Shown: positions 21,999 to 39,500 of the stretch, piece by piece
How the letters are laid out: every line of letters starts with the position of its first letter
How positions within the stretch are numbered: the stretch's first letter is position 1
Source: Candidatus Omnitrophota bacterium
GTDB lineage: Bacteria > Omnitrophota > Gorgyraeia > Zapsychrales > Fredricksoniimonadaceae
Reading direction: 5' to 3'
Assembly (NCBI GenBank): GCA_903901225.1
Contig: CAIUQE010000019.1
Location: 1,146 to 65,145 of the forward strand
DNA: 64,000 nucleotides
Position numbers and translations under genes: made by a program
Notes under the pieces: generated by a model
Seen by the model: the letters and a program-made list of their open reading frames with translations, nothing else
What the model was told of the DNA's origin: nothing
The model's database searches: none

Positions 21999-24473
21999 AT
22001 GCCGTATACGGGGAATGATATCAGGCGGGTCGAGGAAAAGTGGCAGGCCATCTGGGCCCAGAAGAAAACGTTCAAGGCGTCAGTGGACAGCCACAAGAAG
22101 AAATATTATGTCCTGGAGATGTTCCCGTATCCGTCGGGAAAGATCCACATGGGCCATGTCCGCAATTACACCATCGCGGACGTGATCGCGCGTTATAAGA
22201 TGATGCGCGGGTTCAATGTTTTGCACCCGATGGGCTATGACGCCTTCGGCCAGCCCGCGGAGAACGCGGCCATCAAGCGCGGGGTTTCGCCGTCGGAGTG
22301 GACCTACCGCTGCATCGACGACATGCGCGCCGGGCTGAAGAAGATGGGTTTTTCCTACGACTGGGACCGGGAGCTCGCGACCTGTGACGCGTCGTATTAC
22401 CGCTGGAACCAGTGGATATTCTTAAAGATGCAGGAGAAGGGGCTGGTTTACAAGAAGGGTTCACCGGTCAACTGGTGCCCGTCGTGTGCCACGACCCTCG
22501 CCAATGAGGAAGTTAGCAACGGTGCGTGCTGGCGCTGTAAAAATGAGGTCGTGCAGAAAGACCTCGAACAGTGGTACCTGAAGATCACGCATTACGCGGA
22601 ACCCTTGCTGGAAGATTTGAGAACATTGAACAACTGGCCGTCGCGCGTGGTGGCCATGCAGGAGAACTGGATCGGCAGGAGTTTTGGGACGGACATTTAT
22701 TTCAGGATCAAGGGGGCGGATGATGTCATCACGGTCTTTACGACCCGGCCTGATACCATTTTTGGCGCGACCTATGTGACCCTGGCGCCGGAACATCCGC
22801 TGGCTCGCAAATTGTCCCGCGGCACACCCCAGGAAGTGGCGGTGGCGGCGTTCATCGAAAAGTCCGCGCATATTTCCAAATCATTGCGCATGTCGGGTGA
22901 CGCGCGCAAGGAGGGTATCTTTACCGGCGGGTATGCCGTCAATCCTGTCAACGGTGAAGAAGTACCGGTGTGGATCGGCGATTATGTGCTCATGGAGTAC
23001 GGCACCGGCGCGATCATGGCGGTCCCGACGCATGACCAGCGCGATTTCGAGTTCGCGCGCACGCATAATTTGCCCATGCGTGTTGTCATCCAGGACCCGG
23101 CACATCCTTCTGTTACGCCCCAGCAGATGTCCAAGGCGTATGAGGAGAGCGGGGTGCTTGTCAATTCCAGGCAATTTGACGGCGTCTCCAATGAGGATGC
23201 CAAGAAGAATATTTCGGAATGGATCGCGGCACAGAAGATGGGCCGTTTGACCATCAATTGGCGCCTGCGCGACTGGCTCATTTCCCGTCAGCGCTATTGG
23301 GGCACGCCGATCCCCATGGTCTACTGCGAGGCATGCGGCATTGTGCCCGTGCCCTATGACCAGTTGCCGGTTAAATTGCCTGAGAACGCGCCGATCACCG
23401 GTTCGGGCGGCAGCCCTTTGGCCAAGGTCAAAGAATTCGTGGATGTGCAATGTCCGAAATGCGGGTGTGAAGCGCGCCGCGAGACCGACACCATGGCCAC
23501 GTTCTTCGATTCGTCGTGGTATTTCCTGAGGTATTGCTCCGCCCACAATGACAAAGAGATCTTTGACGCCAAGGAGGCCGCGTATTGGATGCCTGTCGAC
23601 CAGTATATCGGCGGTATTGAACACGCGATCCTGCATCTGCTTTACGCGCGTTTCTTTACGAAGTTCCTCCATGACATCGGCCTCGTCGTTGTCGACGAAC
23701 CTTTTGATCGCTTGTTGACCCAGGGCATGGTCCTTAAAGAGGGCGAGGTCATGTCCAAGTCGCGCGGGAATGTGGTCGATCCCGACGAGGTCATTGCCAC
23801 GTTTGGCGCGGATACGTTGCGCGTGTTCATCCTGTTCGCGGCGCCGCCTGAGGACCAGCTGGAATGGAGCCCGGCCGGGCTGGAGGGGAACTGGCGATTC
23901 ATCAACAGGATATGGAATGTGGTGGAGAACCGCTATAGGCCAGTTGCGGCAGGGAACGGCATGCCCGACGCGGATGACAAGAAGCTTGAGTTTGAACGCA
24001 ATGCCGCGATCAAGAAAGTGACGGACAGCATGGAAGGCGGGTTCAAGTTCAACACCGCCATTTCCGCGGTCATGGTCCTGATGAACGCGGTCGATAAATT
24101 CCAGGTGCCGGATGGGGCTCCCGCGAAGCAGGCGGCGCTGAACAAGGCGGTTGAAACAGCCGTGTTGCTCATGGCGCCGTTCATCCCGCACGCGGCGGAA
24201 GAATTGTGGCAGATGATGGGCAAGAATGACGCGTCGGTCGCCTTTGTAGCCTGGCCGACGTATTCTGATGACGCCCTTAAGACCGACACGGTCCGCATGG
24301 CCGTTCAGGTGAATGGCAAGGTGCGCGGGGAATTCGAGGTGGCGCGCGATGCTGACGAAGCTGTGTTGCGGCCGATCGTTCTTGCCGATGAAGGCGTGCA
24401 GCGCCACATCGCGGGCAAGGACATCAAAAAATTCATTGTGATCAAGAACAAGCTTGTGAGCATTGTGGTGTGA
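21999..24473 (+). CDS. leuS: Leucyl-tRNA synthetase
   Basis: 824 aa. HMGH (class I HIGH motif), KMSKS (VMSKSRGN), an editing domain and a C-terminal anticodon-binding region. Confidence 0.95.
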   Translation: MPYTGNDIRRVEEKWQAIWAQKKTFKASVDSHKKKYYVLEMFPYPSGKIHMGHVRNYTIADVIARYKMMRGFNVLHPMGYDAFGQPAENAAIKRGVSPSEWTYRCIDDMRAGLKKMGFSYDWDRELATCDASYYRWNQWIFLKMQEKGLVYKKGSPVNWCPSCATTLANEEVSNGACWRCKNEVVQKDLEQWYLKITHYAEPLLEDLRTLNNWPSRVVAMQENWIGRSFGTDIYFRIKGADDVITVFTTRPDTIFGATYVTLAPEHPLARKLSRGTPQEVAVAAFIEKSAHISKSLRMSGDARKEGIFTGGYAVNPVNGEEVPVWIGDYVLMEYGTGAIMAVPTHDQRDFEFARTHNLPMRVVIQDPAHPSVTPQQMSKAYEESGVLVNSRQFDGVSNEDAKKNISEWIAAQKMGRLTINWRLRDWLISRQRYWGTPIPMVYCEACGIVPVPYDQLPVKLPENAPITGSGGSPLAKVKEFVDVQCPKCGCEARRETDTMATFFDSSWYFLRYCSAHNDKEIFDAKEAAYWMPVDQYIGGIEHAILHLLYARFFTKFLHDIGLVVVDEPFDRLLTQGMVLKEGEVMSKSRGNVVDPDEVIATFGADTLRVFILFAAPPEDQLEWSPAGLEGNWRFINRIWNVVENRYRPVAAGNGMPDADDKKLEFERNAAIKKVTDSMEGGFKFNTAISAVMVLMNAVDKFQVPDGAPAKQAALNKAVETAVLLMAPFIPHAAEELWQMMGKNDASVAFVAWPTYSDDALKTDTVRMAVQVNGKVRGEFEVARDADEAVLRPIVLADEGVQRHIAGKDIKKFIVIKNKLVSIVV

Positions 24474-24480
24474 GGTTGTG

Positions 24481-25194
24481 ATGACACAGCGTGAAATTGC
24501 CCGGCTGATCGACCATTCTTTGCTTCATCCGGCTTTGACCGATATCGAGATCCGTCAAGGCTGTGAGCTTGCGCGCCGCTGCGAAGTCAAGGCGGTGTGC
24601 GTCAAGCCCTACGCGATCTCCGTGGCGAAGGATATCCTCAAAGGTTCTCCCGTCGCGATCTGTTCCGTGGTCGGGTTCCCGCACGGCAATAGCATCACCA
24701 TGGTCAAGTTGCGCGAGACGCAGGAGGCTTTGGCCGCCGGGGCGCACGAGATCGACGTGGTCATCAATATCGGCAAGGCCAAAAGCGGTGAATTGGAGTA
24801 CGTGAAGGAAGAGCTGCGCGCCATCAACCGCGCTTGCCAGCGCACGGCGGCCCCCCTCAAGGTTATTTTTGAGACTGATTTTCTGACGGATGCCGAAGTT
24901 GTCGCGCTGTGCCAGGTGGCCACGGATGTGAATGTCGCGTATGTGAAAACTTCGACGGGATTCGGCTTTGTGAAACAGCCTGGCGGCAATCACAGCTGCA
25001 ACGGGGCCACGGAACATCACGTGAAGCTGATGCGTCAGCATTGCGCCTCGCATATCCGCATCAAGGCTTCGGGCGGCATACGTACGCTTGATGATGTGCT
25101 CAAATTCCATGCGTTGGGCTGTTCGCGCGTCGGCACAAGCGCGACGGAAGCCATCCTTGACGAAGCGAAGCGGCGCGGGGACAAAGAAAAATAA
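24481..25194 (+). CDS. deoC: Deoxyribose-phosphate aldolase
   Basis: An ATG at 24481 gives MTQREIARLIDHSLL. VCVKPY, VVGFPHG, DVVINIG and KTSTGF match the DeoC class I aldolase pattern. The track ORF start at 24463 overlaps the leuS stop. Confidence 0.8.
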   Translation: MTQREIARLIDHSLLHPALTDIEIRQGCELARRCEVKAVCVKPYAISVAKDILKGSPVAICSVVGFPHGNSITMVKLRETQEALAAGAHEIDVVINIGKAKSGELEYVKEELRAINRACQRTAAPLKVIFETDFLTDAEVVALCQVATDVNVAYVKTSTGFGFVKQPGGNHSCNGATEHHVKLMRQHCASHIRIKASGGIRTLDDVLKFHALGCSRVGTSATEAILDEAKRRGDKEK

Positions 25195-25286
25195 CGCGCC
25201 CCGAAAATTTTTGCTATTATTAGTTCGCACCCCAGGTCTTTCCTTTCCTCCCCCCGGAGAATGGCGTCCTTGCCCAAGGACGCGCG

Positions 25287-25631: not shown

Positions 25632-27163
25632 CCCGTCGTCCCGCGGTGATATTGGCACTGGCGTTTGTCGCCGGGATATGCGGCGAGAATATTTTTGGCC
25701 CGCTGCCTTTTCTGTTCATTGCGGTGGGACTCTTCGCTGGCGTTGTCATTGTCGTTCGTTGTGGAAGGTTAGGATCGGGGGCGCTGCTGGTCGCGCTGGC
25801 GTTCCTGTGCGGCGCATTTGCCGCGTGGGACCGCAGTGTTATCCCCGCGGACCATATTCGAGCGCAGTTGGACCGGCTGAAAGGCCGCGCCGTGGATGTG
25901 GTGTGCCTGGTCGCGGCGCCACCTGAAAAAAAGACCAATGGTCTGGCGCCCAAAAGTGTGTTCATCGGCGATCTTGAGCAGGTCAGTGGTTGCCGCTTGA
26001 GTGGTAGAGTGATCGTGAACCTTTACGGCGCGGGGGATTTCCGTTACGGCGATCGTGTTCACGTGAACGGAAAATTCTCCAGGCCCTTCAATTTCTCTCC
26101 CGGTGGAAAACTATCTTATCGTGACTATCTTGCGCGGCAGGGTATTTACGCCGTGCTGCATGTGCGCACGCAAGCGCCGCGGAGGTGCCTTGAGGCGCGG
26201 CGATCATGGAGCTGGGAAGCCATGACCTTGGCCGCGCGCCTGCGCTTGCAGGAAGTTTTTCGGCAAAGCCTTTCTCCCGGCGAGGCAGGGCTTATGAACG
26301 CGATGCTTCTGGGGCCGCGCAACGACATCCCGCCGCATGTGTATGACATTTTTCGTAAGACCGGTACGGCGCATATCATCGCCATCAGCGGGATGAACAT
26401 GACGCTGACCTCGGCCGGCGTTATTTTTATTTTGGGATTGTTCCGTATCCCGCGCCTGCCGCGCGCGTTGCTGGCCGTGGTGATCCTCGCGTTCTATTCC
26501 TGCATGGCGGGCAACAGCGCGCCGGTGGCACGCTCAGCGCTCATGGCCGCGGTGTTCATCCTGAGTTTTGTTATCGAACGCGAGACCGACGCGGCCAACA
26601 GCCTGGCGCTGGCCGCTTTGCTCCTGCTGGCGGCAGATCCCGGGCAGTTGAATGACATCGGGTTCCAGTTGTCGTTCGCTTGTGTTGCCGCGTTACTTTT
26701 ATTGGCGCCATTGATCCTGGCACCGTTCGAAGGCGCGCCTTGTCAGGAGAACAAGGTTGCCTGGGGCCTGATCGAAGGCGCGGGCGTCACCCTGGCCGCG
26801 TTCATCGGGTCCGCGGGTATCCTGGCGTATGATTTCGGATACATGACACCGGTCGGGCTCATTGTGAATCTTCCGGTTATTCCGCTGATGGCGCTGGTCA
26901 CGGCGCTGGGGGCCGCGGTGGCGTTCACCGGGCTTGCGCTGCCATTTTTGGTAACACCTTTCGCGCTGGGCCTGAAGGTTGTATTGAACATTTCTGTCTG
27001 GATACTGGCCCAGGCCGCGCGCATGCCCGTCGTGCCCTGCGCCGGGGTATCCGGGTGGGTGGCTGGCGCGTATTACGGCATCTTATTGTCTGTGACCGCG
27101 TATTTTCATATGACAGCGAGAAAAAACAGGTTCAGCCAGCCCAGGCCGCCCCTGATCCATTAA
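25628..27163 (+). CDS. comEC: ComEC/Rec2 competence channel protein, short form without metallo-beta-lactamase domain
   Basis: An N-terminal DUF4131-like region and the competence-domain TM bundle (TGTAHIIAISGMNMT). 511 aa. No MBL domain follows. Confidence 0.75.
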   Translation: MTRRPAVILALAFVAGICGENIFGPLPFLFIAVGLFAGVVIVVRCGRLGSGALLVALAFLCGAFAAWDRSVIPADHIRAQLDRLKGRAVDVVCLVAAPPEKKTNGLAPKSVFIGDLEQVSGCRLSGRVIVNLYGAGDFRYGDRVHVNGKFSRPFNFSPGGKLSYRDYLARQGIYAVLHVRTQAPRRCLEARRSWSWEAMTLAARLRLQEVFRQSLSPGEAGLMNAMLLGPRNDIPPHVYDIFRKTGTAHIIAISGMNMTLTSAGVIFILGLFRIPRLPRALLAVVILAFYSCMAGNSAPVARSALMAAVFILSFVIERETDAANSLALAALLLLAADPGQLNDIGFQLSFACVAALLLLAPLILAPFEGAPCQENKVAWGLIEGAGVTLAAFIGSAGILAYDFGYMTPVGLIVNLPVIPLMALVTALGAAVAFTGLALPFLVTPFALGLKVVLNISVWILAQAARMPVVPCAGVSGWVAGAYYGILLSVTAYFHMTARKNRFSQPRPPLIH

Positions 27164-27255
27164 TTTTCGCCCCTTTTGCCCTCTTTTTGGCACGATCAAT
27201 CAATATATGTTATCTTTTAACTAAGTTTGGCGGTGTGTCTTACCCAAAGGCGGAG

Positions 27256-30200
27256 ATGAAATTGGACGTGAAGCGAATTCTACATGGAATTCTTGCGGGC
27301 ATTTTGATCCTGGCATTCATTGTGCCGGATCTGCGGGTCTATGCGCAGGGAGTTATTTCTTTGCCGGAACCGGGCGTTGGATTCGCGCTGAGCCCGGCAT
27401 TTTCACCCGTGCTCCTTAAGGGCATCAAGGTCCGCTTGAACGACCCTTTCCGTTTTGATTTCATCCTGGACAAAGGCGATGGCACGGCCACGGCGGCGCA
27501 GATCAAGGCCGACGCCACCCGCCTGATCAAATACTTTCTCGCCTCCCTGACGATCCCGGAAAGCGACCTCTGGGTCAACCTTTCACCCTATGAAAAAGAC
27601 CGTATCATCCCCGACGCTTTTGGCCAGACGGGGATGGGGCGCGACCTGCTTGTCCTGGATTATCTCCTCAAAAAAACAATGGCCATGCTCCTGCACCCGG
27701 ATGGTGCGGTGGGAAAGAAATTCTGGGAGAAACTCTACGCCCGGGCCTACGAGGTCTACGGGACCACCGACATTCCCATTGACACCTTCAATAAGGTCTG
27801 GATCACCACGGACAGCGCCGAGATCTACGCGCGGTCGAAAGATGAAGGCACGCCGGTCCAGGCCGCCGTGGCTTTCGTGACCGCAACCCATCTGAAGGTC
27901 ATGCTGGAGAGTGATTACGTAGCCCTGTCCCATCAGAGGGACAGGGCGGATTCCTCTGCTCCTGCCGAGGACGTAGCCCTGTCCCGTACAACCCAAGGTG
28001 CTGACGCCATGAGCGTAGGGGAGGACTTTATGTCCTCCCGCCATGATCTCGAAAAGAATGTTCTTCGCGAGATCATCATCCCCGTCCTCGAAAAGGAAGT
28101 GAACGAGGGCCGGGATTTCAGCCAGCTGCGGCAGATCTATACCAGCCTTGTGCTGGCGACATGGTACAAGAAGGAGTTGACGAACGCCCTTGTGACCAGG
28201 GTCTACGCGGACCAGGGCAAGGTGGCCGGGATCACGCACCATGATCCCGGGATGCAGCAAAGAATATGGGACAGCTATGCCGAAACCTTCCGCAAAGGGG
28301 TGTATAACCTGATCCGGGAAGAGGTCGATCCGGCTTCTGGGGAAACCATTCCCCGGAAATATTTCTCCGGCGGGGTGGTCCTGCATGGCGATTATGCAAC
28401 GACACAAGAAAGGCCTTCGGCGGAAGGTCCTGGAGATTACGCGGCAATGACAGTGGACCTGGCGCAGGACACTACAGGGGAAGCAACGACACTCAATGAT
28501 ATCCTTGGCCCTTCCGCTGAACAGGCGGTCATGGCAAAATATTTCAGCCGGGGGAAACTTCCCAGTCATGTCAGGAAATTCTTGTCCGGCAGGAATGAGC
28601 TGGTCCGGGACAATAATACGAAAGAATTTGTCCGACGGTTGATGGATATCATGGAGACCGTTGGGCCCGATGTCGGGAACATGATCATAGACTTCATGCG
28701 GGGAGAGCTCGGCGGGAAATTTCTTCTCAAGGATTTGGTTGACCCGGGAGTTCTGTCGGTGTTGTTTCGCGGGGATAAGGATACGCAGGCGTTGCTGGAG
28801 ATGGCTGTGGAGGAGAATGACCCGCGTTACATTGGTTCAGCGCTGGCGGATTTTTTTAAGAAAGAGTTTGATCAGGAAGATGACTTTCAGACTGTCACCA
28901 GGGCGGCGCTCCTGTTGCGTTGCCTTTATGGTTTTCCCCAGGAACGGGTCCCGTTGGTATACCTTACGGCCCTTGAAACTTCCGGGATCCTTGAGCTGTT
29001 CCGGTATGTTCACCGTAATCCGGCATTAAAAGGACAGTATTCATTTCTTACTCCGGGGAATCCGATTGTTACGGCGATCCTGGAGAATAACGGGCCGGAG
29101 CTTGTGCGTTTGATCAATGAGATCCCCTGCCCGCCGGCAAAAAAAGCGGGGCTGTTGTTGCCGATAAAAAAGATGCTCGCGCACTACGGTTATCCTCTCG
29201 TTGCCATTGACGTCGGGAGCGCCGCGGATAACACGCTGCCGGCGTCTGACCCCCTTCCCATAAACATTTCCCTTCACGGTCAATTGTCCGCGATGGAGGA
29301 CATATTATCGGATACGGGCGCCGACCAGGCGTTGGTTTTGAAAGCAGTATTAAAGATCCTGGAAGATGTTAAGGAAACCCTGTCCCATGATCCGCATATT
29401 TATAAGGAATTGGTTGCCAGCTTCCAGGATGAATTGGTCAAAGCCCGAAGCAGTTACCTCCAGCAGCTAGCCATACAACACAAGGATAATGAGGATGCCC
29501 TTTTCGTTGCCGTGACGCAGGCAGAAACAGCCATGTTGCTGGGCTTTGATGAGACCGACATCGTTATTTTGAAAGCGTTCCATTTCTTGAAAAGGAATAA
29601 AACGAATCCGACCATGGAAAGGATCATCAAACACCTCAAAGAGGCGTCATCTGAGATCGATACAGCGACCCTGGAAAAGATATCTATCTTGAAGGATTTT
29701 TTCACCGGGATGATCGCTCTTGATCTTCAGGAAGAACATGTCATTTATGCCAAAGAGGCCAGGACGCTCAGGGATTTTGATATCGACCAGTTTTACCGGA
29801 ACAACATCGAGCATGGCTTTCAGGACCTGGTGATCGCCATGATGGAAGAAACAGGTGCTGACAAAGAGAGTGTGCAGAATTATTTGACAAGTAAAAAGAT
29901 ATTTCCCAACGGGCAGATGGCATTGCTTAATGTTAATGAGTATCCTGTTTTGAGAATAAATAGCAGCTTTGTCAATGAGAGGCTTTTGAAAATAATGACT
30001 CGGGATGTCAAGGATGCAATCAGGAAGATCCTGGATGGCGTGGCTGATGGCAATCAACATATCCCTTTTATTTATCGAACCACACTGGGTAACCAAAAGA
30101 ATTTTTCCATTTATGTCAGGATCAATGGAGTGATCGGGAACAATGAGTTAAGACATGCGGGGCTGGCTGACATTGAAATTAAAGACTTGTTGAATGCTTT

Positions 30201-30585
30201 GGCTAATAAAGAAAACAGCCTGATCTCGGCATTGAATACACAGGCCAGGTACACATTTCGGTCAGGAGATATAACAAAATTCTCCACCGTTATAAAAAAG
30301 ATCATACCTCTGCCGCAGGTTCAAGAAAATGTAATAAATCTCATTAAAACATCCCTGCATAACAGGGAGGTTGTTATCGTTGCCTTTGGAGCAAGGGCCA
30401 AGTTCAAAATGCGATCAGACACCAACTCAATGTTGCACGACTTTGAGCAGCATTTGAATAATGTTTCCACAGGTACTATTGAGCCTCTTCCTGTTTATGC
30501 CGATCAGGCCATGTCTCTTGAGAAAGATCTCGGCGGTATTGACCTTGATCCCGCCGCTGCTCAAAGGCATCAAGGTTTATCGTAA
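27256..30585 (+). CDS. Giant paralog-family protein P2 (about 1110 aa from ATG 27256), C-tail truncated at fusion junction
   Basis: RBS aaggcggag precedes ATG 27256. Signal peptide ...RVYAQ|GVISLPEPG. N-domain LLKGIKVRLNDPFRFDFILDKGDG...DLWVNLSPYEKDRI...PRKYFSGG. Ends GGIDLDPAAAQRHQGLS*, where the tail motif GGIDL-P runs into nucleotides encoding the next paralog's N-domain. The track ORF starts at 27055 inside comEC. Confidence 0.75.
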   Translation: MKLDVKRILHGILAGILILAFIVPDLRVYAQGVISLPEPGVGFALSPAFSPVLLKGIKVRLNDPFRFDFILDKGDGTATAAQIKADATRLIKYFLASLTIPESDLWVNLSPYEKDRIIPDAFGQTGMGRDLLVLDYLLKKTMAMLLHPDGAVGKKFWEKLYARAYEVYGTTDIPIDTFNKVWITTDSAEIYARSKDEGTPVQAAVAFVTATHLKVMLESDYVALSHQRDRADSSAPAEDVALSRTTQGADAMSVGEDFMSSRHDLEKNVLREIIIPVLEKEVNEGRDFSQLRQIYTSLVLATWYKKELTNALVTRVYADQGKVAGITHHDPGMQQRIWDSYAETFRKGVYNLIREEVDPASGETIPRKYFSGGVVLHGDYATTQERPSAEGPGDYAAMTVDLAQDTTGEATTLNDILGPSAEQAVMAKYFSRGKLPSHVRKFLSGRNELVRDNNTKEFVRRLMDIMETVGPDVGNMIIDFMRGELGGKFLLKDLVDPGVLSVLFRGDKDTQALLEMAVEENDPRYIGSALADFFKKEFDQEDDFQTVTRAALLLRCLYGFPQERVPLVYLTALETSGILELFRYVHRNPALKGQYSFLTPGNPIVTAILENNGPELVRLINEIPCPPAKKAGLLLPIKKMLAHYGYPLVAIDVGSAADNTLPASDPLPINISLHGQLSAMEDILSDTGADQALVLKAVLKILEDVKETLSHDPHIYKELVASFQDELVKARSSYLQQLAIQHKDNEDALFVAVTQAETAMLLGFDETDIVILKAFHFLKRNKTNPTMERIIKHLKEASSEIDTATLEKISILKDFFTGMIALDLQEEHVIYAKEARTLRDFDIDQFYRNNIEHGFQDLVIAMMEETGADKESVQNYLTSKKIFPNGQMALLNVNEYPVLRINSSFVNERLLKIMTRDVKDAIRKILDGVADGNQHIPFIYRTTLGNQKNFSIYVRINGVIGNNELRHAGLADIEIKDLLNALANKENSLISALNTQARYTFRSGDITKFSTVIKKIIPLPQVQENVINLIKTSLHNREVVIVAFGARAKFKMRSDTNSMLHDFEQHLNNVSTGTIEPLPVYADQAMSLEKDLGGIDLDPAAAQRHQGLS

Positions 30586-33500
30586 TGACCCGTTCCGGTT
30601 TGATTTCATCCTCGACAAAGGTGATGGCAAGGCCGTGGAGGCGCAGACAAAAACGGATGCCACCCGGTTGATCAAATATTTCCTTGCGTCGCTGACGGTT
30701 CCCGAGAAAGACCTGTGGGTCAACCTCTCGCCCTATGAAAAAGACCGCATCGTGCCCGAAGCCTTCGGGAAGACCGAGATGGGCCGTGATCTTCTCGCGC
30801 AGGATTACATCCTCAAGCAAATAACAGCATCGCTCATTTACCCCGATGAAAAGACCGGCAAGGAATTCTGGGCCAAAGTTTACGCCGAAGCACAGCGTCG
30901 TTACGGCACAACGGACATCCCGGTCGACACCTTCAACAAGGTCTGGATCATCCCCGAAAAAGCCACCGTCTACGAACACAAAGACGCCGTATATGTGGTT
31001 GAGAGCCGATTGAAAGTCATGTTGGAAACGGATTATATTGCGATGACGCGGGCGGACACAAGGTCCGCCCCTACAACGCAAGGTGTTGACTTCGTGAGCG
31101 TAGGGGAGGACCTTGTGTCCTCCCGCCATGAGCTCGCCAAGAATGTTCTGCGCGAGATCATCATCCCCGCCCTTGAAAAAGAAGTCAACGAAGGCCAAAA
31201 CTTCGCCACGCTGCGCCAGGTCTACAATTCCCTGATTCTAGCCACCTGGTACAAGCGCAAGGTCAAGGCCGGCATCCTTGGCCAGGCGTATGTCGACAAA
31301 AAGAAGACGGGCGGCATCGACATCAAGGACAAGAACGAAAAGGAAAAGATCTGGGCCCAGTACGTCGAGGCGTTCAGGAGGGGGGCGTATAACCTTATCA
31401 GGGAAGAATACGACTCGACGACCAGATCCACTACTCCGAGAAAATATTTCGCGGGAGGATTGGCCTTGAGTGTGGACGCCGCGATGGATATTACGTCAGA
31501 TGCGGCAAGCGTGGCAAGTATGCCTGGTGATAGATTTGAAATCATCATTTCGTCTCTTTTATCGGTCGACAGGGCGATGTCTGAGAGGGATAGTCACGTG
31601 CCGCCTACTGTTGAAATGGTAAACCGGATAAATAATCTTGTTGAAGCGCTTGGCAGTCCAGACGGGCTGGTGCGTGCGCATGCGGCTAAAGAGCTTCTTA
31701 AGATGGATGAAAAGGGAGTGAGGCAGTCGTTATTTGAAAATGGTTACTGGTCTGAAAAAGAGTCAATGTCAGGCAAGTTCAGAGCGTTGATCTTGAAAAA
31801 AGTACCGGCATGGAAGTTGGTGCTGGAGGCGTTCAACACACTGAATGTTTTTGATGGTTATGAAAAGATAGACATGCGTAATAATCCTGCAAGATATCTG
31901 GCCCTGGGCATGGAGGTCATGTTTTGGCCAAAAAGGTATTCATTTTATTCTTGGTGGAATTTTTCAACATATCTTTTAGCGATGAAGGATTATGACCAGT
32001 TTATCGATTATGTGGCTTTTAGTCCGGCCAAAGTGTTCAGCACGGAGTCGATCTTATCAGAAGTCAGAAGCACCCAAAGTTATTCGCAAAAGAAGTTCTT
32101 CCTGGATGTTTTGATCCGCCGGAAAGAGCCGAAAGCAGTTGAACTGTCTTGGGCATGGATCGGAAGAAAGGGGACTGTTAATGATTTTCACAGCGCTTTG
32201 CAGGATTCAATTGAAGGATATTTGAAGGACGCGGACCCAAAATTTGTTTCAGCAGCATTTTTCTCCCGTGAGGCCAGGAAAGGTCCTGGCAAGCTGGCGA
32301 TAGATTATTTGAATATTTTCCCGACGGCTTCGGCGCTTAAAGATGATGTGAGCATCATGTCGACATCCAGCTGCCCTTTCAACTGCAGGATGTGCGTTGC
32401 CAAGAAAATCCGCAGGGAGCGCAACCCTGATGTCCCTAAAGCAGAATTGTTCAGGCGGATCGATCAGGTCAGGGGCGCCTCGAGGATCCGGTTCGTTGGA
32501 CCCGGTGAAACGACAGCTTATGGAAAACAGGATTTATCGGAACCTGGATTTTCCAGGGACTTTATTGATGTGCTCAAGTATGCGTCCGAAGCTGCTGATG
32601 AGATCTATGTTGTGACCAACGGCCTTTTAATCCCCGCCGACATGGATCAAGCCAGAAGTCTGCTGGGAAATCTTCCCAATAACATTGTTTGGATCCTTTC
32701 AGTTGATGAGCAACACGCGGCAGAAATGGCAAGAGTTCAGGACGGCAAGAAACTTACAGATCTGGTGATGGTGTTCGAAGGATTGCATAATGAGGATCAT
32801 ATTAAGGCAGGATATTTTGTGGCGGCCACCTTTTCCGACCAATCGAAAGTTACAAGACAGTTTGGATTGAGGGATGCCGAGAAAGAGCACCGGGTTACAG
32901 CTTTTCCGATCATAGAACAAGGTGTCGCCGCAGAAGCGATGAAGGGTGAAGTTTCGTACAGGGACCCTGGCCATTACAATGATCACTCAAAGGAGGAGGG
33001 CAGGACAGACCTGTACATTGATATGGATGGCTTCGTTGTGGGTTCAAACCATGTCGCTTTCATGACTTCCGGGGAAAGAAAGACTATTCGCACGTTCAAT
33101 ATTTTTGGGAATGTTCAGGAGCAGCCCTTATCCGATTTTATGCTTATAAAATACAAGACAAGGGCGATATGGAACGACTATGGCAGTGAAAAAGAATTTT
33201 TTGAATGCTGTAAATATCTTCTCAAGGCGATCGCGTTGTATTTAGATGGTAATGAAAAAGAACTGCAAGGACAATTGACCATCATAAGGGCCATGCCAAT
33301 GAATTTGAGAAAGAAGGTTGTCGAAAAGTTACATGGGAATTTTGAATGGATAGATCTGAGGGAACGTGTATTACTTGGTATTTGGTTTAGCCGCTATTTA
33401 CCGGATTGGTGGGAGCTTATCCTAAAGAAAGACAAGGTCCATTACTTTGGCAACTTGACGCAGCTTTTTTCTTCCAAAGGTACTCAGACGGGAGATAATG

Positions 33501-33697
33501 CCGAGGTTGCACAAAACGGCGGTATCGACCTCAACCCCTCTAAAATTGACATGGCCACGAAGAACAGCGGCGCGCCGATCGATCTCAACCTCGACCCCGC
33601 GATGCTCTGGCGTATGCAGGATGCTTCCGGCGTCACACCTGTCATTGTCGGCATCCATGCTCTTGGAAGCCTGCGGCAGTTCCTCGAAATTCCGTAG
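30461..33697 (+). CDS. Giant paralog-family protein P3 (N-domain, radical-SAM-like payload, C-tail), lacking its own start and signal peptide; possible pseudogene or frameshift fusion with P2
   Basis: From about 30557 the frame encodes IPPLLKGIKVYRNDPFRFDFILDKGDG...DLWVNLSPYEKDRI...PRKYFAGG, about 80% nucleotide identity to P2 27414 onward. Payload has CPFNCRMC, FVGPGETTAYG, VVTNG and ILSVDEQ (radical SAM core). C-tail GGIDLNP...LDPAML...GVTPVIVGI...FLEIP. The frame is +1 relative to P2. The 5' part of the track ORF reads through the P2 3' end. Confidence 0.6.
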   Translation: MFPQVLLSLFLFMPIRPCLLRKISAVLTLIPPLLKGIKVYRNDPFRFDFILDKGDGKAVEAQTKTDATRLIKYFLASLTVPEKDLWVNLSPYEKDRIVPEAFGKTEMGRDLLAQDYILKQITASLIYPDEKTGKEFWAKVYAEAQRRYGTTDIPVDTFNKVWIIPEKATVYEHKDAVYVVESRLKVMLETDYIAMTRADTRSAPTTQGVDFVSVGEDLVSSRHELAKNVLREIIIPALEKEVNEGQNFATLRQVYNSLILATWYKRKVKAGILGQAYVDKKKTGGIDIKDKNEKEKIWAQYVEAFRRGAYNLIREEYDSTTRSTTPRKYFAGGLALSVDAAMDITSDAASVASMPGDRFEIIISSLLSVDRAMSERDSHVPPTVEMVNRINNLVEALGSPDGLVRAHAAKELLKMDEKGVRQSLFENGYWSEKESMSGKFRALILKKVPAWKLVLEAFNTLNVFDGYEKIDMRNNPARYLALGMEVMFWPKRYSFYSWWNFSTYLLAMKDYDQFIDYVAFSPAKVFSTESILSEVRSTQSYSQKKFFLDVLIRRKEPKAVELSWAWIGRKGTVNDFHSALQDSIEGYLKDADPKFVSAAFFSREARKGPGKLAIDYLNIFPTASALKDDVSIMSTSSCPFNCRMCVAKKIRRERNPDVPKAELFRRIDQVRGASRIRFVGPGETTAYGKQDLSEPGFSRDFIDVLKYASEAADEIYVVTNGLLIPADMDQARSLLGNLPNNIVWILSVDEQHAAEMARVQDGKKLTDLVMVFEGLHNEDHIKAGYFVAATFSDQSKVTRQFGLRDAEKEHRVTAFPIIEQGVAAEAMKGEVSYRDPGHYNDHSKEEGRTDLYIDMDGFVVGSNHVAFMTSGERKTIRTFNIFGNVQEQPLSDFMLIKYKTRAIWNDYGSEKEFFECCKYLLKAIALYLDGNEKELQGQLTIIRAMPMNLRKKVVEKLHGNFEWIDLRERVLLGIWFSRYLPDWWELILKKDKVHYFGNLTQLFSSKGTQTGDNAEVAQNGGIDLNPSKIDMATKNSGAPIDLNLDPAMLWRMQDASGVTPVIVGIHALGSLRQFLEIP

Positions 33698-33739
33698 TGA
33701 GATATCTCAAGACAGAGTATTTTCGATCCTCCGCCTTCA

Positions 33740-33768
33740 TTGACAAACATTTCCCCCTGTGATACATT
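33740..33768 (+). promoter_or_regulatory. Sigma70-like promoter (TTGACA-17-TACATT) upstream of the BamD-like gene
   Basis: TTGACA at 33740-45, a 17-nt spacer, then TACATT at 33763-68. It sits about 19 nt upstream of the start codon. Confidence 0.4.
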
Positions 33769-33786
33769 GGGCGCACTGTGTTTTAT

Positions 33787-34749
33787 ATGAAAATCAGGCC
33801 TACTCTTATAGCTCTTGTTGTCGTCGCCTCCGCCATGGCCATGGCCGCGCCGGCCCATGCCTTCTGGATCTGGACGCCGGAAAGTGGCAAGTGGGTCAAT
33901 CCCAAATACTCCGTTAAGCCTTCGCCGCAGGAACAGCTGGCCTACGCCGATACTTTTTTTCAGGCGGGCAAGTACCCGGAGGCGATGCGCGAATACAAGA
34001 AACTTTTGAAGCATTATCCCAAGGCCCGCGAGGCCGCTGAGGCGCAGTTCAATATGGGCCGCGCCTGGGAGGACCTGAAGAAATTCTGGCGCGCCGTTGA
34101 AGAATACCAGAAGGTCGTGGATCGTTATCCTTTCAGCGACCTTGGCCCCAAGGTCGTGGAGCGGCAGTACGCCATCGCGGACCTTTTTCTCGAGGGTAAG
34201 GCCAAGGACCATGAGTTCGCCCAGTCATTGCTGGGGACGGATTATCAGGTCCCCGAGGTTTTCCTGAAAGTCATCAAGAACGACCCTTATGGTCCGCTCG
34301 CGCCTGTGTCCCAATACAAGATCGGTCTTTTTTACCTGGCCAAGCGTGATTACCAGCAGGCCCGTGACGCTTTTGAGAAGACGGTCAACGATTATCCGGA
34401 TTCCAAGTGGGCGGAAGCGGCGCGTTACCAGATCGCGGTCGCGGACGCCAAGCGCTCAGTCGGGGCCCAGTATGACCAAAAAACAACGAATATCGCCGTC
34501 CAGGGGTTTGAGGATTACGTGAAGCTGAACCCTGAATCCGACCTTTCCGCCTCCGCCAAGGAACAGATCAACAAATTACGGGAGAAGGAAGCGGAAAATA
34601 ATTTTGTGGTCGGTGAGTATTACGCGAAAATGAAGAGGTACAATTCCGCCAGGATATACTGGCAGACCGTCGTCGACAAGTATGCTGACACGCCCTGGGC
34701 CGCCAAAGCCTCCGCGCAGCTCAAGGCCATTGCGGGTAAAGCTTCATGA
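33787..34749 (+). CDS. TPR-repeat outer membrane assembly protein, BamD/YfiO-like
   Basis: Signal peptide MKIRPTLIALVVVASAMAMAAPAHA. Multiple TPR-like helices. C-terminal YYAKMKRYNSARIYWQTVVDKY. Followed by lptE. The track start at 33778 is a GTG. Confidence 0.5.
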   Translation: MKIRPTLIALVVVASAMAMAAPAHAFWIWTPESGKWVNPKYSVKPSPQEQLAYADTFFQAGKYPEAMREYKKLLKHYPKAREAAEAQFNMGRAWEDLKKFWRAVEEYQKVVDRYPFSDLGPKVVERQYAIADLFLEGKAKDHEFAQSLLGTDYQVPEVFLKVIKNDPYGPLAPVSQYKIGLFYLAKRDYQQARDAFEKTVNDYPDSKWAEAARYQIAVADAKRSVGAQYDQKTTNIAVQGFEDYVKLNPESDLSASAKEQINKLREKEAENNFVVGEYYAKMKRYNSARIYWQTVVDKYADTPWAAKASAQLKAIAGKAS

Positions 34750-35264
34750 AGAAAGCGGTCCTTCTAGTCCTGGTCCTGTTGCTGGCCGGCTGCGGTTATA
34801 GCACCAGATCCCTCCTGCCGAGCCGTTTCCGCACGATCTATATCGAGCCTTTTGAGAACAAGGTCGATTACATGAACACCACCGAGCGCAAACTTTATAT
34901 TCCCGGCATGGAAACGCGCGTGCGCGAGGCCGTGGTGGACCGCTACCTCTTCGATGGCAACCTGCGCATCGGCAACAAGGATACGGCGGACCTTGTGCTC
35001 AAGGGGCAGTTGCTGAGCTTTGAGCGCGAGCAGCTCAGCCTCCAGCCGAACGAATCTGTCCAGGAATACCGGCTTCGCGTGACCGTTGCGCTTGAGCTTG
35101 TTGATTCTGTTGAAAAGCAGCCGATGTGGAAAGAAACTGCTTTCGCGGGTGAGGCCACATATTATACGGTTGGTCCTTTGGCCAAACCTGAAGCCCAGGC
35201 GATCGACGAAGCCATCAAAGACCTGGCCTTGCGCGTGGTCGCCCGTACCGTTGAAGCCTGGTAA
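34746..35264 (+). CDS. lptE: LPS-assembly lipoprotein LptE-like
   Basis: Lipobox LLLAGC|GY. IYIEPFENK... matches the LptE/RlpB pattern. Overlaps the upstream gene by 4 bp. Confidence 0.6.
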   Translation: MKKAVLLVLVLLLAGCGYSTRSLLPSRFRTIYIEPFENKVDYMNTTERKLYIPGMETRVREAVVDRYLFDGNLRIGNKDTADLVLKGQLLSFEREQLSLQPNESVQEYRLRVTVALELVDSVEKQPMWKETAFAGEATYYTVGPLAKPEAQAIDEAIKDLALRVVARTVEAW

Positions 35265-35300
35265 GGCCAGCTTCTCCCAACCCCGGCCTGATATTGAAAC

Positions 35301-35954
35301 ATGCCCCTGCATCAGCTCATCCTTGGTCCTGATGTCCCCTTGCGCGACAAAGCCCTTCGCGTCCTGAAAGCCCGTTTTCTTAAAACTCCCGAGGCCTTGA
35401 AGTTCGACCTGAATTATCTCGACGCGCAGGACCTTGCGTTCCAGGACCTCAAGGCCGCTTTGTTGACACTGCCGGCGGTGGCGGAGAGGCGGGTCGTTTT
35501 TGTCAGCCGCGCGGAGAAGCTTGACGAACAGCAGCTTGAACTCATCGAGCAGGTGATCGACCGTGACGCTTTGGGCTGCGTCATCGTGCTTGAGGCGGCG
35601 CAATGGGACAAGAGGGTCCCGGCGCGCAAGCGCCTCGCGGCCAAGCTGGAGGTTTCCGGTGGTGAACCAAAGCTCACGGCCTTTGACTTGTTTCGGGACT
35701 TGCCCCGTGACCGCGCGGGCATGCTCGCGCGGCTTGGGGAACTTTTAGAGGATGAGGCGGTGGAGAATATTTTGGGCGCCTTGCGGTGGTGGTGGTGCCA
35801 TGAGATGAAAAGGTCGATCGCGGCGGTAAAATATAAAAAAGGCCTCCTGGTCATCCAGGAGGCCGATCAGAGGATCAAGTTAAGCGGCCTGCTCTCGCGG
35901 GAGCAGTCGATCGAAGTGGCTCTGGTCAAGCTTTCTTCGTTGATAAAAGCTTAG
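35301..35954 (+). CDS. holA: DNA polymerase III delta subunit-like (HolA), short
   Basis: LILGPDVPLRDKALRVLKARFL...AERRVVFVSRAEKLDEQQLELIEQVI resembles HolA but is only 217 aa. Followed convergently by rpsT, as in many genomes. Confidence 0.5.
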   Translation: MPLHQLILGPDVPLRDKALRVLKARFLKTPEALKFDLNYLDAQDLAFQDLKAALLTLPAVAERRVVFVSRAEKLDEQQLELIEQVIDRDALGCVIVLEAAQWDKRVPARKRLAAKLEVSGGEPKLTAFDLFRDLPRDRAGMLARLGELLEDEAVENILGALRWWWCHEMKRSIAAVKYKKGLLVIQEADQRIKLSGLLSREQSIEVALVKLSSLIKA

Positions 35955-36189
35955 CGAAGCGGGCCTTGCGGCGGGCAGCTGTCTTCTTGTGCATGATATT
36001 GCGTTTGGCCGCTTTATCGATCTTCTTGTAGACCAAAGGCAGGAGCTCCTTGGCTTTCTTTTCATCGACAGCGACGGAAGCCACGTAAGCTTTGATGGTT
36101 TTTCTGAGTTCGGATTTGATATCCAGATTGTGCATCTGGCGCGCGCGGTTCTTCTTGAGGTCTTTAACGGCGGTTTTACGTTGAGGCAC
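35926..36189 (-). CDS. rpsT: 30S ribosomal protein S20
   Basis: AAGGAG RBS, an 8-nt spacer, then a GTG start. VPQRKTAVKDLKKNRARQMHNLDIKSELRKTIKAY...HKKTAARRKARFAKLL, 87 aa. The track ORF 35926..36678 is a spurious upstream extension. Confidence 0.85.
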   Translation of the reverse strand: MPQRKTAVKDLKKNRARQMHNLDIKSELRKTIKAYVASVAVDEKKAKELLPLVYKKIDKAAKRNIMHKKTAARRKARFAKLLSTKKA

Positions 36190-36244
36190 GAGTTTTACTC
36201 CTTGTTGTTTGTTAGGTTCGAAAGTATAACAAACGGGTTTTTTT

Positions 36245-37816
36245 ATGTCAACTGATAAAAATGAGCACGACCATTCGCTCCGGGGCATATTGCGCTCCAC
36301 CTCCGTGATGTCGCTGGGAACCCTGGCCAGCCGCGCGCTGGGGTTTGTGCGGGACATCATTTTCGCGCATTTTTTCGGAACGGCCGCGGGGGCGGACGCG
36401 TTCGTCGTGGCGTTCCGCCTGCCGAACCTTTTCCGGGACCTGGTGGGCGAGGGGGCGGCCAATTCCTCCTTTGTCCCGGTCATGACCGAATACAAGGAAA
36501 GGAAGCCGGAGGAACTGGCCGGGTTTCTTAACGCGATCCTGGTCTGGGCGTTCATCGTGCTGTGCGCCATCACCCTGGCGTGCATTGTCCTCGCGCCCCT
36601 GGTGGTCAGGCTCATCGCGCCTGGCTTCGCGGAGGAACCTGGCAAGCTCGGGATGGCCGTGACGTTGACCCGCATCATGTTCCCCTATCTCGTCCTGATC
36701 GGGCTGACGGCGTTATTTTCCGCCATCCAGTTCGCCTATGGCGCTTTTGTCATGCCGGCGTTCGGGCCATGCCTGCTCAATATCGCGCTTATTGCGTCGA
36801 CCCTTGCCGCCGTGGCCTGGATGAAGACGCCGGTCTACGGGCTGGCCTGGGGCGTTCTCGCGGGCGGGTTCCTGCAACTGTATTTCCAGTGGCGCACCCT
36901 GGCCGGGCATGGGGTTGTTTTCCGCTGGCCGTTAACGCTGTTCCATCCGGGCGCGCGCCAGATCGGGCGGCTCCTTTTGCCGCGCCTGGTCGGGTCCGCG
37001 GTCTATCAGCTCAATGTTTTTGTCGATACGATCTGCGCCTCGCTCACGGCCATTGTCGGGGCCGGCGGAATTTCGGCCATTTATTACGCGAACCGGATCG
37101 TGCTTTTCCCGATGGGGGTTTTTGGCGTCGCGCTCGCCGCGGCGACCCTGCCGGCGTTCGCGCGGCACGTGGTGGCGGATGACAAGGAAGAGTTGCGCCG
37201 GACCATTGTTTTCGCCCTGGAGAATATCTTTTTCGTGATGATGCCGACGACCATCTTTTTGTGCCTTCTGGCGGAGCCGCTGACGCGGGTCGTTTTCCAG
37301 CGCGGGGTGTTCGACGCGTATTCCACGACGGTCACGGCGTCGGTCCTCTTTTTCTTCAGCCTGGGCCTCATGGGTTATGGCGGGGTGAAGATACTCGCCT
37401 CCGCCTTTCATGCCATGCAGGACACCCGCACGCCGGTGAAGGTCGCCTTGCTGTGCCTCGTCGTGAACGCGGCGCTTAATCTTATCCTGATGTTCCCCAT
37501 GAAGCTTTCCGGCATCGCCCTGGCGAGCGCGATCGCGTCTTTGGTCAATGTCGGGACGCTGTTCATGATCCTGGAGCGGCGGCTTGCCGGCTTGAAAGGC
37601 GCCTTTGGCGCTTATTTCGCGCGGCTGTTCGCGGCCGGTATTGTGATGGGAGCCCTCATCTGGGGGCTGTGGCACGGCCTCAGCGGGATCCCGGAGCTGG
37701 CACGGCTTTTCGTGGCCGCGCTCCTGGGCGGGGCAGGTTATCTTGCGGCGGCGTTCGTGTTCGGGCTGGAGCAGGCGCGCCAGCTTGTCAGGAAGCTCAT
37801 ACGCCTGCCGTCCTGA
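36245..37816 (+). CDS. murJ: Lipid II flippase MurJ (MviN)
   Basis: 523 aa, 14-TM topology. Conserved MSLGTLASRALGFVRDIIFAHFFG and FPMGVFGVALAAATLP. Confidence 0.9.
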   Translation: MSTDKNEHDHSLRGILRSTSVMSLGTLASRALGFVRDIIFAHFFGTAAGADAFVVAFRLPNLFRDLVGEGAANSSFVPVMTEYKERKPEELAGFLNAILVWAFIVLCAITLACIVLAPLVVRLIAPGFAEEPGKLGMAVTLTRIMFPYLVLIGLTALFSAIQFAYGAFVMPAFGPCLLNIALIASTLAAVAWMKTPVYGLAWGVLAGGFLQLYFQWRTLAGHGVVFRWPLTLFHPGARQIGRLLLPRLVGSAVYQLNVFVDTICASLTAIVGAGGISAIYYANRIVLFPMGVFGVALAAATLPAFARHVVADDKEELRRTIVFALENIFFVMMPTTIFLCLLAEPLTRVVFQRGVFDAYSTTVTASVLFFFSLGLMGYGGVKILASAFHAMQDTRTPVKVALLCLVVNAALNLILMFPMKLSGIALASAIASLVNVGTLFMILERRLAGLKGAFGAYFARLFAAGIVMGALIWGLWHGLSGIPELARLFVAALLGGAGYLAAAFVFGLEQARQLVRKLIRLPS

Positions 37817-37832
37817 AAAGGGATGGTCCTTC

Positions 37833-39500
37833 GTGAATCTTCATCTGTTGAATATCGCGTTGTGGTTCCTCCCTTATGCCCAGGTCACCGGCCTCGGCCT
37901 GTTGCTGCTGAAATTGCTGCGCTTCGAGTTCAAACGCCCGCGTGACGTGTTGCGCGCGTTCTGGGCGGGATTCGCGGGCCTCATTGCCTGCCTGCAGCTG
38001 ACTCATTTCTTTTGGCCCGTGAACTTTCCGGTGGTCTTGTCGTTAATGTTCCTGAGCGCGTTGGGTTTTATCATGGCTGGCCGCGACGGCGTGAGGCTGC
38101 TGACGAACCTGAAGTTCAAAGATCTCCTGTTCATCATTGTTGCCGCCGGGATCGTGCATGCCTGGGTCCTCAGCCAGAAAGCTGTCGTGCCTGTGCGTTA
38201 TGATACCGGCTTGTATCATATCCAGCAGATCGACTGGCTGATGCGGCATCCGACGGTGGTAGGGCTGGGGAATCTTTTCACGAACCTGGCGTTCCCCCAG
38301 GTGTATTTCTTTTTTGCCGCTTTCCTGGAACGGGCTTACGCGGGCATGGGCGGATGTTATATGGCCAGCTATATCCTGGCTGCCGCCGTCCTGTTCGAAT
38401 GCGCGCTCGGGGCGCGCGCCATTATCGTCAAGGCCGACCTGCGGGTACAAAATTTCTTTCGCGTTCTTCTATTTCTGCCGTTCATTTTCTACGCCTGTTA
38501 TGATAGCCGCGTTGTCACGGCGTCACCCGATGCGGCGGTGTTCCTCATCGAACTGGCGATGACCGCGCTGTTGTTCGACGTGCTGGAAGATCTGCCGGGA
38601 TGTCCGCTGGCTTTCTTCGTTTATATTTTTATGACATTTATCGGTATCGCGCTCAAGCCTTCTTACGCGATCTTTGGTGCTGCCGGGCTTGTGCTGGCCG
38701 GATGGAGGGGGCGCGGGCGTCTTCGTGGATGGTGGTTTGTCCTCATCGGGGCGTGCGTCCTTGTCCCGTTCTTTATCCGCAACATCATGCTGAGCGGGTA
38801 TCTTTTTTTTCCGTCATCTTTCATGCCTTTTCCCGTGGACTGGAGGATCCCCGCGTTCATCCAGGACGGGAATCTCGCGTGTACGTTGAGTTACGCCAAG
38901 GCGGGGGATTGCCAGGCGCGGGCGTTGGGCGATCTGGGCTGGCTCGGGTTCTGGTTAAAGGACGGGATCAGGGGCGCGAGCGGGTTTTTTAACGTTCCTT
39001 TGGGATTGATCTTTTTTGGGTGCCTCTTTGGTGTCAGGAAGGTCTTTAAAGCACCTGTTATCGCTGTTCTTTTGCCGCCGGTCATTTCGTTTACGGTTAT
39101 TTTTTTTACCGCGCCGGATTGCCGCTTCTTTGGCAGCAGCGTCTGGATCATCGGGCTGGTACTCGCGGCGGCGGTTTTCGCCGGAGAAGGGGTCCTGTTG
39201 AAGTTCCTGCCCGTGAAAGGACTGGTCCTTGTGCTCGTTGTTTTATTCGGGCTGATGAGCGCGCGGGGTGCCTGGAGTGCGGTGGCTTTGAAGAGATACA
39301 TTCCCGTTGATCGCGGGCATTACAAGGTGTTCCGCCTGAGCGACGCGGTCAGCGTCCTTCAGTTACAGGGCGATGACCGCTGCTGGGGCACGTCTTTGCC
39401 GTGCACGCCGCATCGTATCGGCGCTTTGAAGTTGCGCGATCCGCGGCACATCGAGGCGGGTTTCACGCGCCAGGGTGACCGGGAGGATATGACGCCATGA
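37833..39500 (+). CDS. Polytopic membrane protein of unknown function (possibly GT-C-like)
   Basis: The in-frame GTG at 37833 follows the murJ stop; the track start at 37743 would overlap murJ by 74 bp. At least 12 hydrophobic helices. Cys-rich C-terminal segment (RCWGTSLPCTPH). Confidence 0.45.
   Translation: MNLHLLNIALWFLPYAQVTGLGLLLLKLLRFEFKRPRDVLRAFWAGFAGLIACLQLTHFFWPVNFPVVLSLMFLSALGFIMAGRDGVRLLTNLKFKDLLFIIVAAGIVHAWVLSQKAVVPVRYDTGLYHIQQIDWLMRHPTVVGLGNLFTNLAFPQVYFFFAAFLERAYAGMGGCYMASYILAAAVLFECALGARAIIVKADLRVQNFFRVLLFLPFIFYACYDSRVVTASPDAAVFLIELAMTALLFDVLEDLPGCPLAFFVYIFMTFIGIALKPSYAIFGAAGLVLAGWRGRGRLRGWWFVLIGACVLVPFFIRNIMLSGYLFFPSSFMPFPVDWRIPAFIQDGNLACTLSYAKAGDCQARALGDLGWLGFWLKDGIRGASGFFNVPLGLIFFGCLFGVRKVFKAPVIAVLLPPVISFTVIFFTAPDCRFFGSSVWIIGLVLAAAVFAGEGVLLKFLPVKGLVLVLVVLFGLMSARGAWSAVALKRYIPVDRGHYKVFRLSDAVSVLQLQGDDRCWGTSLPCTPHRIGALKLRDPRHIEAGFTRQGDREDMTP

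Follow-up and report, generated by a model that had tools for sequence, protein, structure and literature searches.

A 357-bp deletion between short direct repeats probably truncated two adjacent paralogs of an Omnitrophota protein family, leaving one as a likely newborn pseudogene

Results

The P2-P3 junction

The window analysed here is a stretch of 64,000 nucleotides (nt) from a Candidatus Omnitrophota bacterium. It carries four paralogs, P1, P2, P3 and P4, which share an N-terminal domain (N-domain). The family plan comprises a signal peptide, an N-domain of roughly 330 amino acids (aa), a variable cargo and a C-terminal tail (C-tail) of roughly 60 aa (GGIDL...DPAM...PVI). This study concerns the point at which P2 ends and P3 begins, where the following features are found.

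27256..30585, plus strand: P2, with signal peptide, N-domain and a cargo without Pfam match; its C-tail stops after GGIDLDPAA and is followed by AQRHQGLS and TAA
30532..30549, plus strand: kept part of the first P2 tail motif (GGIDLD), from the sequence and comparison with the sister-lineage boundary
30550..30557, plus strand: deletion junction, the sole kept copy of the 8-nt direct repeat CCCGCCGC, from comparison with the sister-lineage locus L007
30558..30585, plus strand: P3 N-domain codons read out of frame in P2 as (A)AQRHQGLS, with TAA at 30583-30585, from translation
30550..33697, plus strand: P3, a 5'-truncated paralog with an N-domain from PPLLKG, a radical-SAM-like cargo and a whole C-tail

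The P2 frame reads GGIDLDPAAAQRHQGLS and then a stop over 30532-30585, and the C-terminal end of the protein is ...EKDLGGIDLDPAA followed by AQRHQGLS (in a longer excerpt, ...AMSLEKDLGGIDLDPAA-AQRHQGLS). The +1 frame is open from 30458 and reads ...LTLIPPLLKGIKVYRNDPFRFDFILDKGDG; the start of the paralog N-domain in this frame, PPLLKGIKVYRNDPF..., runs on as P3. Both translations are as described in the first-pass annotation, which had been made from the letters alone. That annotation had also proposed a microhomology, cccgc(c/g), shared by the two motifs. The microhomology exists, but it is longer than claimed, comprising the 8 nt of CCCGCCGC at 30550-30557, which are read as ccc gcc gc (P-A-A) in the P2 frame and as c ccg ccg c (P-P-L) in the P3 frame. 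Its left copy had been placed in the LDPAM motif, but actually lies in the first tail motif, GGIDLDPAA (gat ccc gcc gc). The two strings quoted there for these motifs were located at 33590-33607 (ctcgaccccgcgatgctc) and in P4 near 61107 (ccgccgctcttaaaaggc).

Immediately 5' of 30550, the sequence is P2 coding sequence in the other frame. P3 has no signal peptide, no LPxPG..LSPAF segment and no start-codon context; it begins at about residue 48 of the N-domain, straight after P2, and the first roughly 20 N-domain residues are gone. P2 keeps only GGIDLDPAA of the tail motifs, and the tail of P3 is whole, so that each gene is an incomplete member of the family. P2 starts with the ATG at 27256, and gene callers use this or a nearby start. 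Public gene calls give P3 a length of 1050 or 1052 aa, from TTG 30545 or TTG 30539. Counted from ATG 30461, the frame has 1078 codons and ends at 33697, in agreement with its earlier description as otherwise intact.

Occurrence of the junction in independent assemblies

All that is known of the organism comes from metagenome assemblies, and the same sample series also contains a sister lineage; both circumstances would favour the view, raised in the first-pass annotation, that the junction is an assembly mis-join between near-identical tandem paralogs. Positions 27000-34000 of the window were, however, 100% identical to three contigs of the European Nucleotide Archive (ENA) from different samples (L002-L004) and 99.98% identical to a fourth contig. 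A fifth differed only by an N-gap and by 10 substitutions at 27164-27239, in the upstream leader of P2. The junction was unchanged in L001, L005 and the ERZ1426545 contig. The P3 product was present in at least 16 contigs and the truncated P2 product in 24 or more (NCBI, ENA and Logan), and the junction was identical in more than 25 contigs, which came from several samples, from at least three assembly series (ERZ186..., ERZ273... and ERZ1426...), and under two assembler naming styles. All P2 alleles at 90% identity or above were of the truncated 1107/1109-aa form, and no full-tail allele at this level was found in a protein collection of about 15 billion sequences. The premise of near-identity does not hold either: the N-domains of P2 and P3 share 58% protein identity (mutual E about 1e-127), and an 8-nt repeat is far below the k-mer of any assembler. 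The recurrence of one junction across contigs, samples and assembly series refutes the mis-join, to which we accord a very small probability, and the junction appears to be real in the organism and fixed in the sampled population.

An undeleted boundary in a sister lineage

The sister lineage was read as DNA (L007/L008) and shows about 86% nt identity to the window, with a synonymous divergence (dS) of 0.5-0.7 in housekeeping genes. The gene order is ComEC, P2, P3, BamD, LptE in the window and ComEC, A, B, Y, BamD, LptE in L007. P2 aligns with B over its whole length, up to window position 30557, and N-domain homology starts at 30549-30556. The second half of the P3 N-domain (31128-31422) is 92.5% identical to gene Y, and window 33515-38667, comprising the P3 tail and everything downstream, aligns with the Y tail and its downstream genes. 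The P3 and Y tails share 92% aa identity, with a ratio of nonsynonymous to synonymous divergence (dN/dS) of 0.12. By alignment and gene order, P3 and Y are positional orthologs that differ in their cargos. In a more distant outgroup (L006), one full-length gene with a whole tail lies between ComEC and BamD. L007 keeps the boundary undeleted.

In the orthologs of P2, namely P0185 (1155 aa), P0126/P0186 (1130/1132 aa) and P0127 (1158 aa), the tail continues past GGIDLDPAA as ...MKLSVH...GLKPVIVNMTQH..LGSFLE. Compared with P0185, P0126 and P0127, P2 is short of 57 or more tail residues. The A|B and B|Y boundaries of L007 each consist of a tail end, a stop, a 37-nt spacer with GGAG, a start, a signal peptide and LSPAF. 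At the A|B boundary, CCCGCCGC occurs at 13223, in gat CCC GCC GCc atg (D-P-A-A-M), and again at 13580, in gtC CCG CCG Ctg ctg aaa (V-P-P-L-L-K), with a spacing of exactly 357 nt. When these 357 nt are removed in silico, 136 of 140 positions match window 30490-30629, against a genome-wide identity to the sister lineage of about 86%. By chance, each strand of the 64 kb should hold about 2.4 copies of the octamer; its placement is nevertheless more than chance, since the two copies coincide exactly with the ends of the stretch that the window lacks by comparison with the sister lineage.

Gene Y of L007 (16942-18429) keeps its signal peptide and LSPAF, which are followed by a degenerate, frameshifted remnant of PPLLKGIKVYRN. 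It is devoid of N-domain residues of about 60-240, and its cargo is shorter than, and different from, that of P3. Gene Y would therefore itself be damaged, or of variant architecture. A lesion in the Y N-domain sharing the breakpoint of the window was considered and rejected: the Y remnant extends about 40 nt further, and the breakpoints differ.

Searches for further intact copies of the two cargos returned little. The P2 cargo, used as a single sequence and as an alignment, had no match in the GTDB species-representative contigs. A homolog search of the protein collection with the P3 cargo returned P3 itself and one relative with 38% identity (P0188), and no close intact P3 ortholog. Besides P0002, the only detectable relatives of the P3 cargo were P0045 (583 aa) and P0188 (509 aa), adjacent products on one 6020-nt NCBI contig; their arrangement suggests that a P3-like gene has been split there as well.

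The proposed deletion

On this comparison, the ancestor had two paralogs of an Omnitrophota-specific family side by side, each translated separately. A slipped-strand or illegitimate deletion then occurred between two copies of CCCGCCGC, the left one in the D-P-A-A codons of the upstream gene's tail and the right one in the (V)-P-P-L codons of the downstream gene's N-domain. The 357 bp lost comprised the last 57 tail codons of the upstream gene (169 nt with the stop), the 37-nt spacer including the GGAG ribosome-binding site, and the first 50 codons of the downstream gene (151 nt), encoding its start, signal peptide and LPxPG..LSPAF. As a result, P2 now terminates after eight nonsense-frame codons, and P3 is left as an intact-looking frame of 1050 codons with neither a start nor an export signal. 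P2 and P3 remain out of frame because the +1 offset predates the deletion and 357 is a multiple of three. The comparison confirms the first-pass annotation, both in proposing a microhomology-mediated deletion and in listing what it removed (the rest of the P2 tail, the intergenic region, and the start, signal peptide and first residues of P3), each of which can be seen in the L007 boundary.

We consider it probable that the junction arose by this 357-bp short-direct-repeat deletion, that the event is very recent and fixed, that P3 is most likely a newborn pseudogene, and that P2 is tail-less and probably impaired. P3 would most likely be untranslated, or at best inefficiently translated into a protein that cannot be exported. 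The losses in P2 and P3 matter because the lost parts are hallmarks of the family.

Family hallmarks

In intact copies, the signal peptide ends in YAQ and is followed by LPxPG..LSPxF.PPLLKGIKV; the full tail has the form GGIDL...(F/L)DPAM...G(L/V)TPVI..., ending in FLG/E. No Pfam or NCBIfam model matches the N-domain or the tail. Homolog searches returned thousands of proteins, with the N-terminal domain in common; those named are almost all from Candidatus Omnitrophota/Omnitrophica, and most NCBI and JGI entries are labelled 'hypothetical protein'. Their cargos include methyltransferases, GNAT, Fic, NUDIX, Zeta toxin, PEP-utilisers, HATPase and radical SAM domains. A profile search of 1.84 billion representatives yielded 8250 clusters (50% identity) at E <= 1e-3, with a best score of 704 bits, and the domain was single and N-terminal in all 150 of the top 150 matches.

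Among 186 fetched members, the N-domain starts at a median residue of 33, and the signal peptide and LPxPG..LSPxF precede it in essentially all of them. Starts within the N-domain are limited to the P3 copies, P0061 and P0082. P0082 was considered as a recurrent truncation and rejected, because its start had been mis-called and a normal signal peptide lies upstream of it. The tail motifs were found in at least 138 of 188 fetched proteins; the exceptions mostly look like proteins cut at contig ends or tails that vary from the strict motif. The AlphaFold model of P4 (predicted local confidence, pLDDT, of 70-89 in the N-domain) gave no convincing match to the Protein Data Bank (PDB), a sequence profile search found no relative of solved structure, and the literature searched held no description of the family.

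Selection and timing

Between the two lineages, the shared codons of P3 and Y show a dN/dS of 0.215 at a dS of 0.37, and the P2 cargo shows a dN/dS of 0.29 against B. Given these ratios, P3 was under purifying selection before the deletion, and both genes were functional for most of their history. By calculation, about 0.7-2% neutral divergence is the most that an unconstrained frame of 1050 codons would withstand with a 95% probability of staying open. As the P3 frame is still open, the deletion would be very recent compared with the lineage split, if P3 has been unconstrained since. The sole single-nucleotide polymorphism seen in about 6 kb is nonsynonymous (K212I) and lies in P3, and one sample carries a further allele:

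31276..31281, plus strand: 1-nt deletion allele in sample ERZ1426545, splitting P3 into 307-aa and 743-aa products

This variation fits a newborn pseudogene, with numbers too small to prove relaxed selection. Of the four explanations offered in the first-pass annotation, very recent pseudogenisation fits best.

Several observations weigh against a dead P3. The 1050-codon frame is still perfect and its CxxxCxxC motif and tail are intact, so ongoing selection is possible. ATG 30461, TTG 30539 and TTG 30545 are candidate internal starts, and the use of Shine-Dalgarno (SD) sequences in this genome is too weak to discount them. Moreover, the frameshifted allele comes from a single assembly and could be an assembly error. 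Inspection of SD sequences and promoter and terminator scans of the locus did not discriminate between the readings.

These observations bear on the alternative that P3 is still expressed, as a cytoplasmic protein lacking a signal peptide, from one of the three internal starts and coupled to P2; on this view, the deletion would have changed the destination of a radical-SAM cargo protein without inactivating it. The intact frame with its catalytic cysteines is consistent with this, as are the choice of TTG 30539/30545 by gene callers in every assembly, the 41-47 nt overlap with P2, which could permit coupling, and the absence of a clear SD from many genes of this genome. However, no SD-like sequence precedes any candidate start, and a frameshifted P3 allele exists. 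The product would also have neither a signal peptide nor the LPxPG/LSPxF residues, which are near-invariant and, like the signal peptide, kept in 183 of the 186 relatives examined; with the start of P0082 mis-called, no other examined family member truly begins at this position. We therefore regard continued expression from an internal start as rather unlikely.

The reading frames at the junction

The offset between the two frames had also suggested that P2 and P3 might be joined by programmed +1 ribosomal frameshifting into a single fusion of about 2150 aa, for example through a slip of tRNA-Pro on CCC-G at 30550, with GGIDLDPPLLKGIKV as the predicted junction-spanning peptide. CCC-G is a slippage-prone context for tRNA-Pro, and any +1 shift between 30458, where the +1 frame opens, and the TAA at 30583 would enter P3. 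The features expected to stimulate such a shift are nevertheless missing. There is no hungry codon: GCC, which follows CCC, is used more often than any other alanine codon (39.7 per 1000), and AGG, at 9.1 per 1000, is not rare. Re-pairing is not possible in the P2 stop context, UCG UAA U, none of the candidate sites has an SD 3 nt upstream, and the RNA fold of 30540-30680 has a z of +0.36 relative to shuffled sequences. In addition, the overlap is absent from the sister lineage and the outgroup, which have separate genes or a single gene, and no double-N-domain protein occurs among the top 150 matches in the 1.84 billion representatives. With 357 a multiple of three, the offset is merely inherited from the original gene arrangement. 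Codon usage, RNA folding, conservation and family architecture thus lend no support to a frameshift fusion, which we consider very improbable.

Recombination at the locus

Further tracts of P2 and P3 bear on how the locus has evolved.

27256..27850, plus strand: 5' segment of P2 resembling gene A of the sister lineage (sliding identity 89-100%; dS of 0.11 to A versus 0.43 to B)
27985..28100, plus strand: P2 linker tract, a gene-conversion patch of about 115 nt, about 88% identical to P3 31070-31185
31070..31185, plus strand: partner of this patch in the N-domain linker of P3

Beyond its first roughly 600 nt, P2 is B-like. This makes P2 an A/B mosaic, which suggests either the collapse of an A-B pair to one gene or conversion within the N-domain. 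The 115-nt tract shared by P2 and P3 has no related counterpart in the orthologous parts of A and B from L007, a pattern that indicates gene conversion between these two neighbours. In L007, the A|B (13180-13640) and B|Y (16685-17160) boundaries are about 93% identical, which indicates unequal crossover in the tandem array or its concerted evolution. The locus is demonstrably recombinogenic, and the family visibly evolves here through exchange of cargos and deletion as well as through unequal crossover and gene conversion.

Such a locus might hold silent copies, as the first-pass annotation had proposed. P3 would then be an orphan cargo cassette, a promoterless 5'-truncated copy whose cargo could be placed behind the P2 start and signal peptide by recombination in the N-domain. 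Its position directly downstream of a paralog with a shared constant region is consistent with this proposal, as are the chimeric nature of P2, the 115-nt tract, the homogenised boundaries in L007, and the difference in cargo between P3 and Y, which share an N-domain half and a tail. The cargos of the family are also very diverse and include the toxin-like Fic, Zeta and NUDIX. One random short-repeat deletion fully explains the junction, however, and the N-domains of P2 and P3, with an overall nt identity of about 60-80% and a longest exact match of 19 nt, are a poor substrate for homologous recombination. Furthermore, P2, which would be the expressed copy, lost its tail in the same event. No immunity-like open reading frame (ORF) is present, with only 80 nt between the P3 stop (33697) and the BamD-like gene (33778). 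No other truly N-truncated protein was found among the fetched family members, the start of P0061 not having been re-checked. The conversion tract attests to one past exchange between P2 and P3. A silent cassette seems distinctly unlikely to us.

Other features of the window

The remaining paralogs and the main features within P3 are as follows.

16572-21665, minus strand: P1, N-domain paralog
60960-63434: P4, N-domain paralog
32360..32650, plus strand: radical-SAM-like core of P3 (CPFNCRMC, CxxxCxxC), with PF04055 at E=9e-5 and TIGR04317 at E=1.5e-7, below the curated cut-offs
33518..33694, plus strand: complete C-tail of P3, GGIDLNPSKID...LDPAMLWRMQDASGVTPVIVGIHALGSLRQFLEIP, orthologous to the gene Y tail of the sister lineage

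Two ORFs of 824 aa, at 21999-24473 (leucyl-tRNA synthetase) and at 60960-63434 (P4), are unrelated, and their equal length is a coincidence. In the sister lineage, L007 5314-7955 has acyltransferase_3 and UvrD-like helicase genes between the DeoC-like and ComEA-like HHH genes; both are missing from the window at about 25178-25211.

Discussion

This study describes an event that is ordinary in kind, a gene-inactivating short-repeat deletion in an uncharacterised family. It is a textbook case caught very early: apart from their truncation, both genes are still perfect ORFs, and a co-occurring sister lineage preserves the parent boundary. With regard to annotation, P2 and P3 should be flagged as truncated genes, and neither the label of an overlapping pair nor that of a frameshift gene is appropriate. 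The wider value of the locus is that it points to an Omnitrophota-restricted family with thousands of members, constant ends and a highly variable enzymatic cargo; this family and its dynamic tandem array, though a by-product of the analysis, are of more interest than the deletion itself. If P3 were nevertheless an orphan cassette in a recombination-driven, cargo-switching array, the N-domain and tail would serve as recombination handles and the family would perhaps be effector-like. It would then be a secreted family possibly serving predatory or parasitic Omnitrophota, and an analogue of contact-dependent growth inhibition (CDI) and Rhs systems with an internal variable domain.

The arrangement can be compared with three known systems. 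Like the genes that use programmed +1 frameshifting (prfB and the Ty1/antizyme type), P2 and P3 are two long ORFs overlapping in the 0 and +1 frames. In contrast to those sites, the P2-P3 overlap lacks a slow A-site codon and a stimulatory SD or structure and is not conserved, and the fused product has no precedent in the family.

The orphan cassettes of CdiA-CT and Rhs-CT systems offer a closer likeness. In both cases, a start-less, 5'-truncated copy lies downstream of a paralog, the constant region is shared and the variable domain differs, and the P2/P3 locus likewise shows recombination and conversion among copies. In P2 and P3, however, the variable part is internal, between the constant N-domain and tail, rather than C-terminal. 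There is also no immunity gene, the nt identity of the constant region is low, the upstream copy, P2, was damaged in the same event, and the arrangement was not seen to recur among the other family members.

The short-direct-repeat deletions of the RecA-independent, slipped-strand type match the event in each respect. A single 8-nt copy survives, and the other copy has gone together with everything between the two; a relative still shows the parent structure, with which the flanks are collinear, and each of the two genes hit by the deletion has been truncated. Nothing essential differs. Here, the repeats stem from two conserved motifs of the family, the DPAA of the tail and the PPL of the N-domain, which the same GC-rich octamer encodes in different frames by happenstance.

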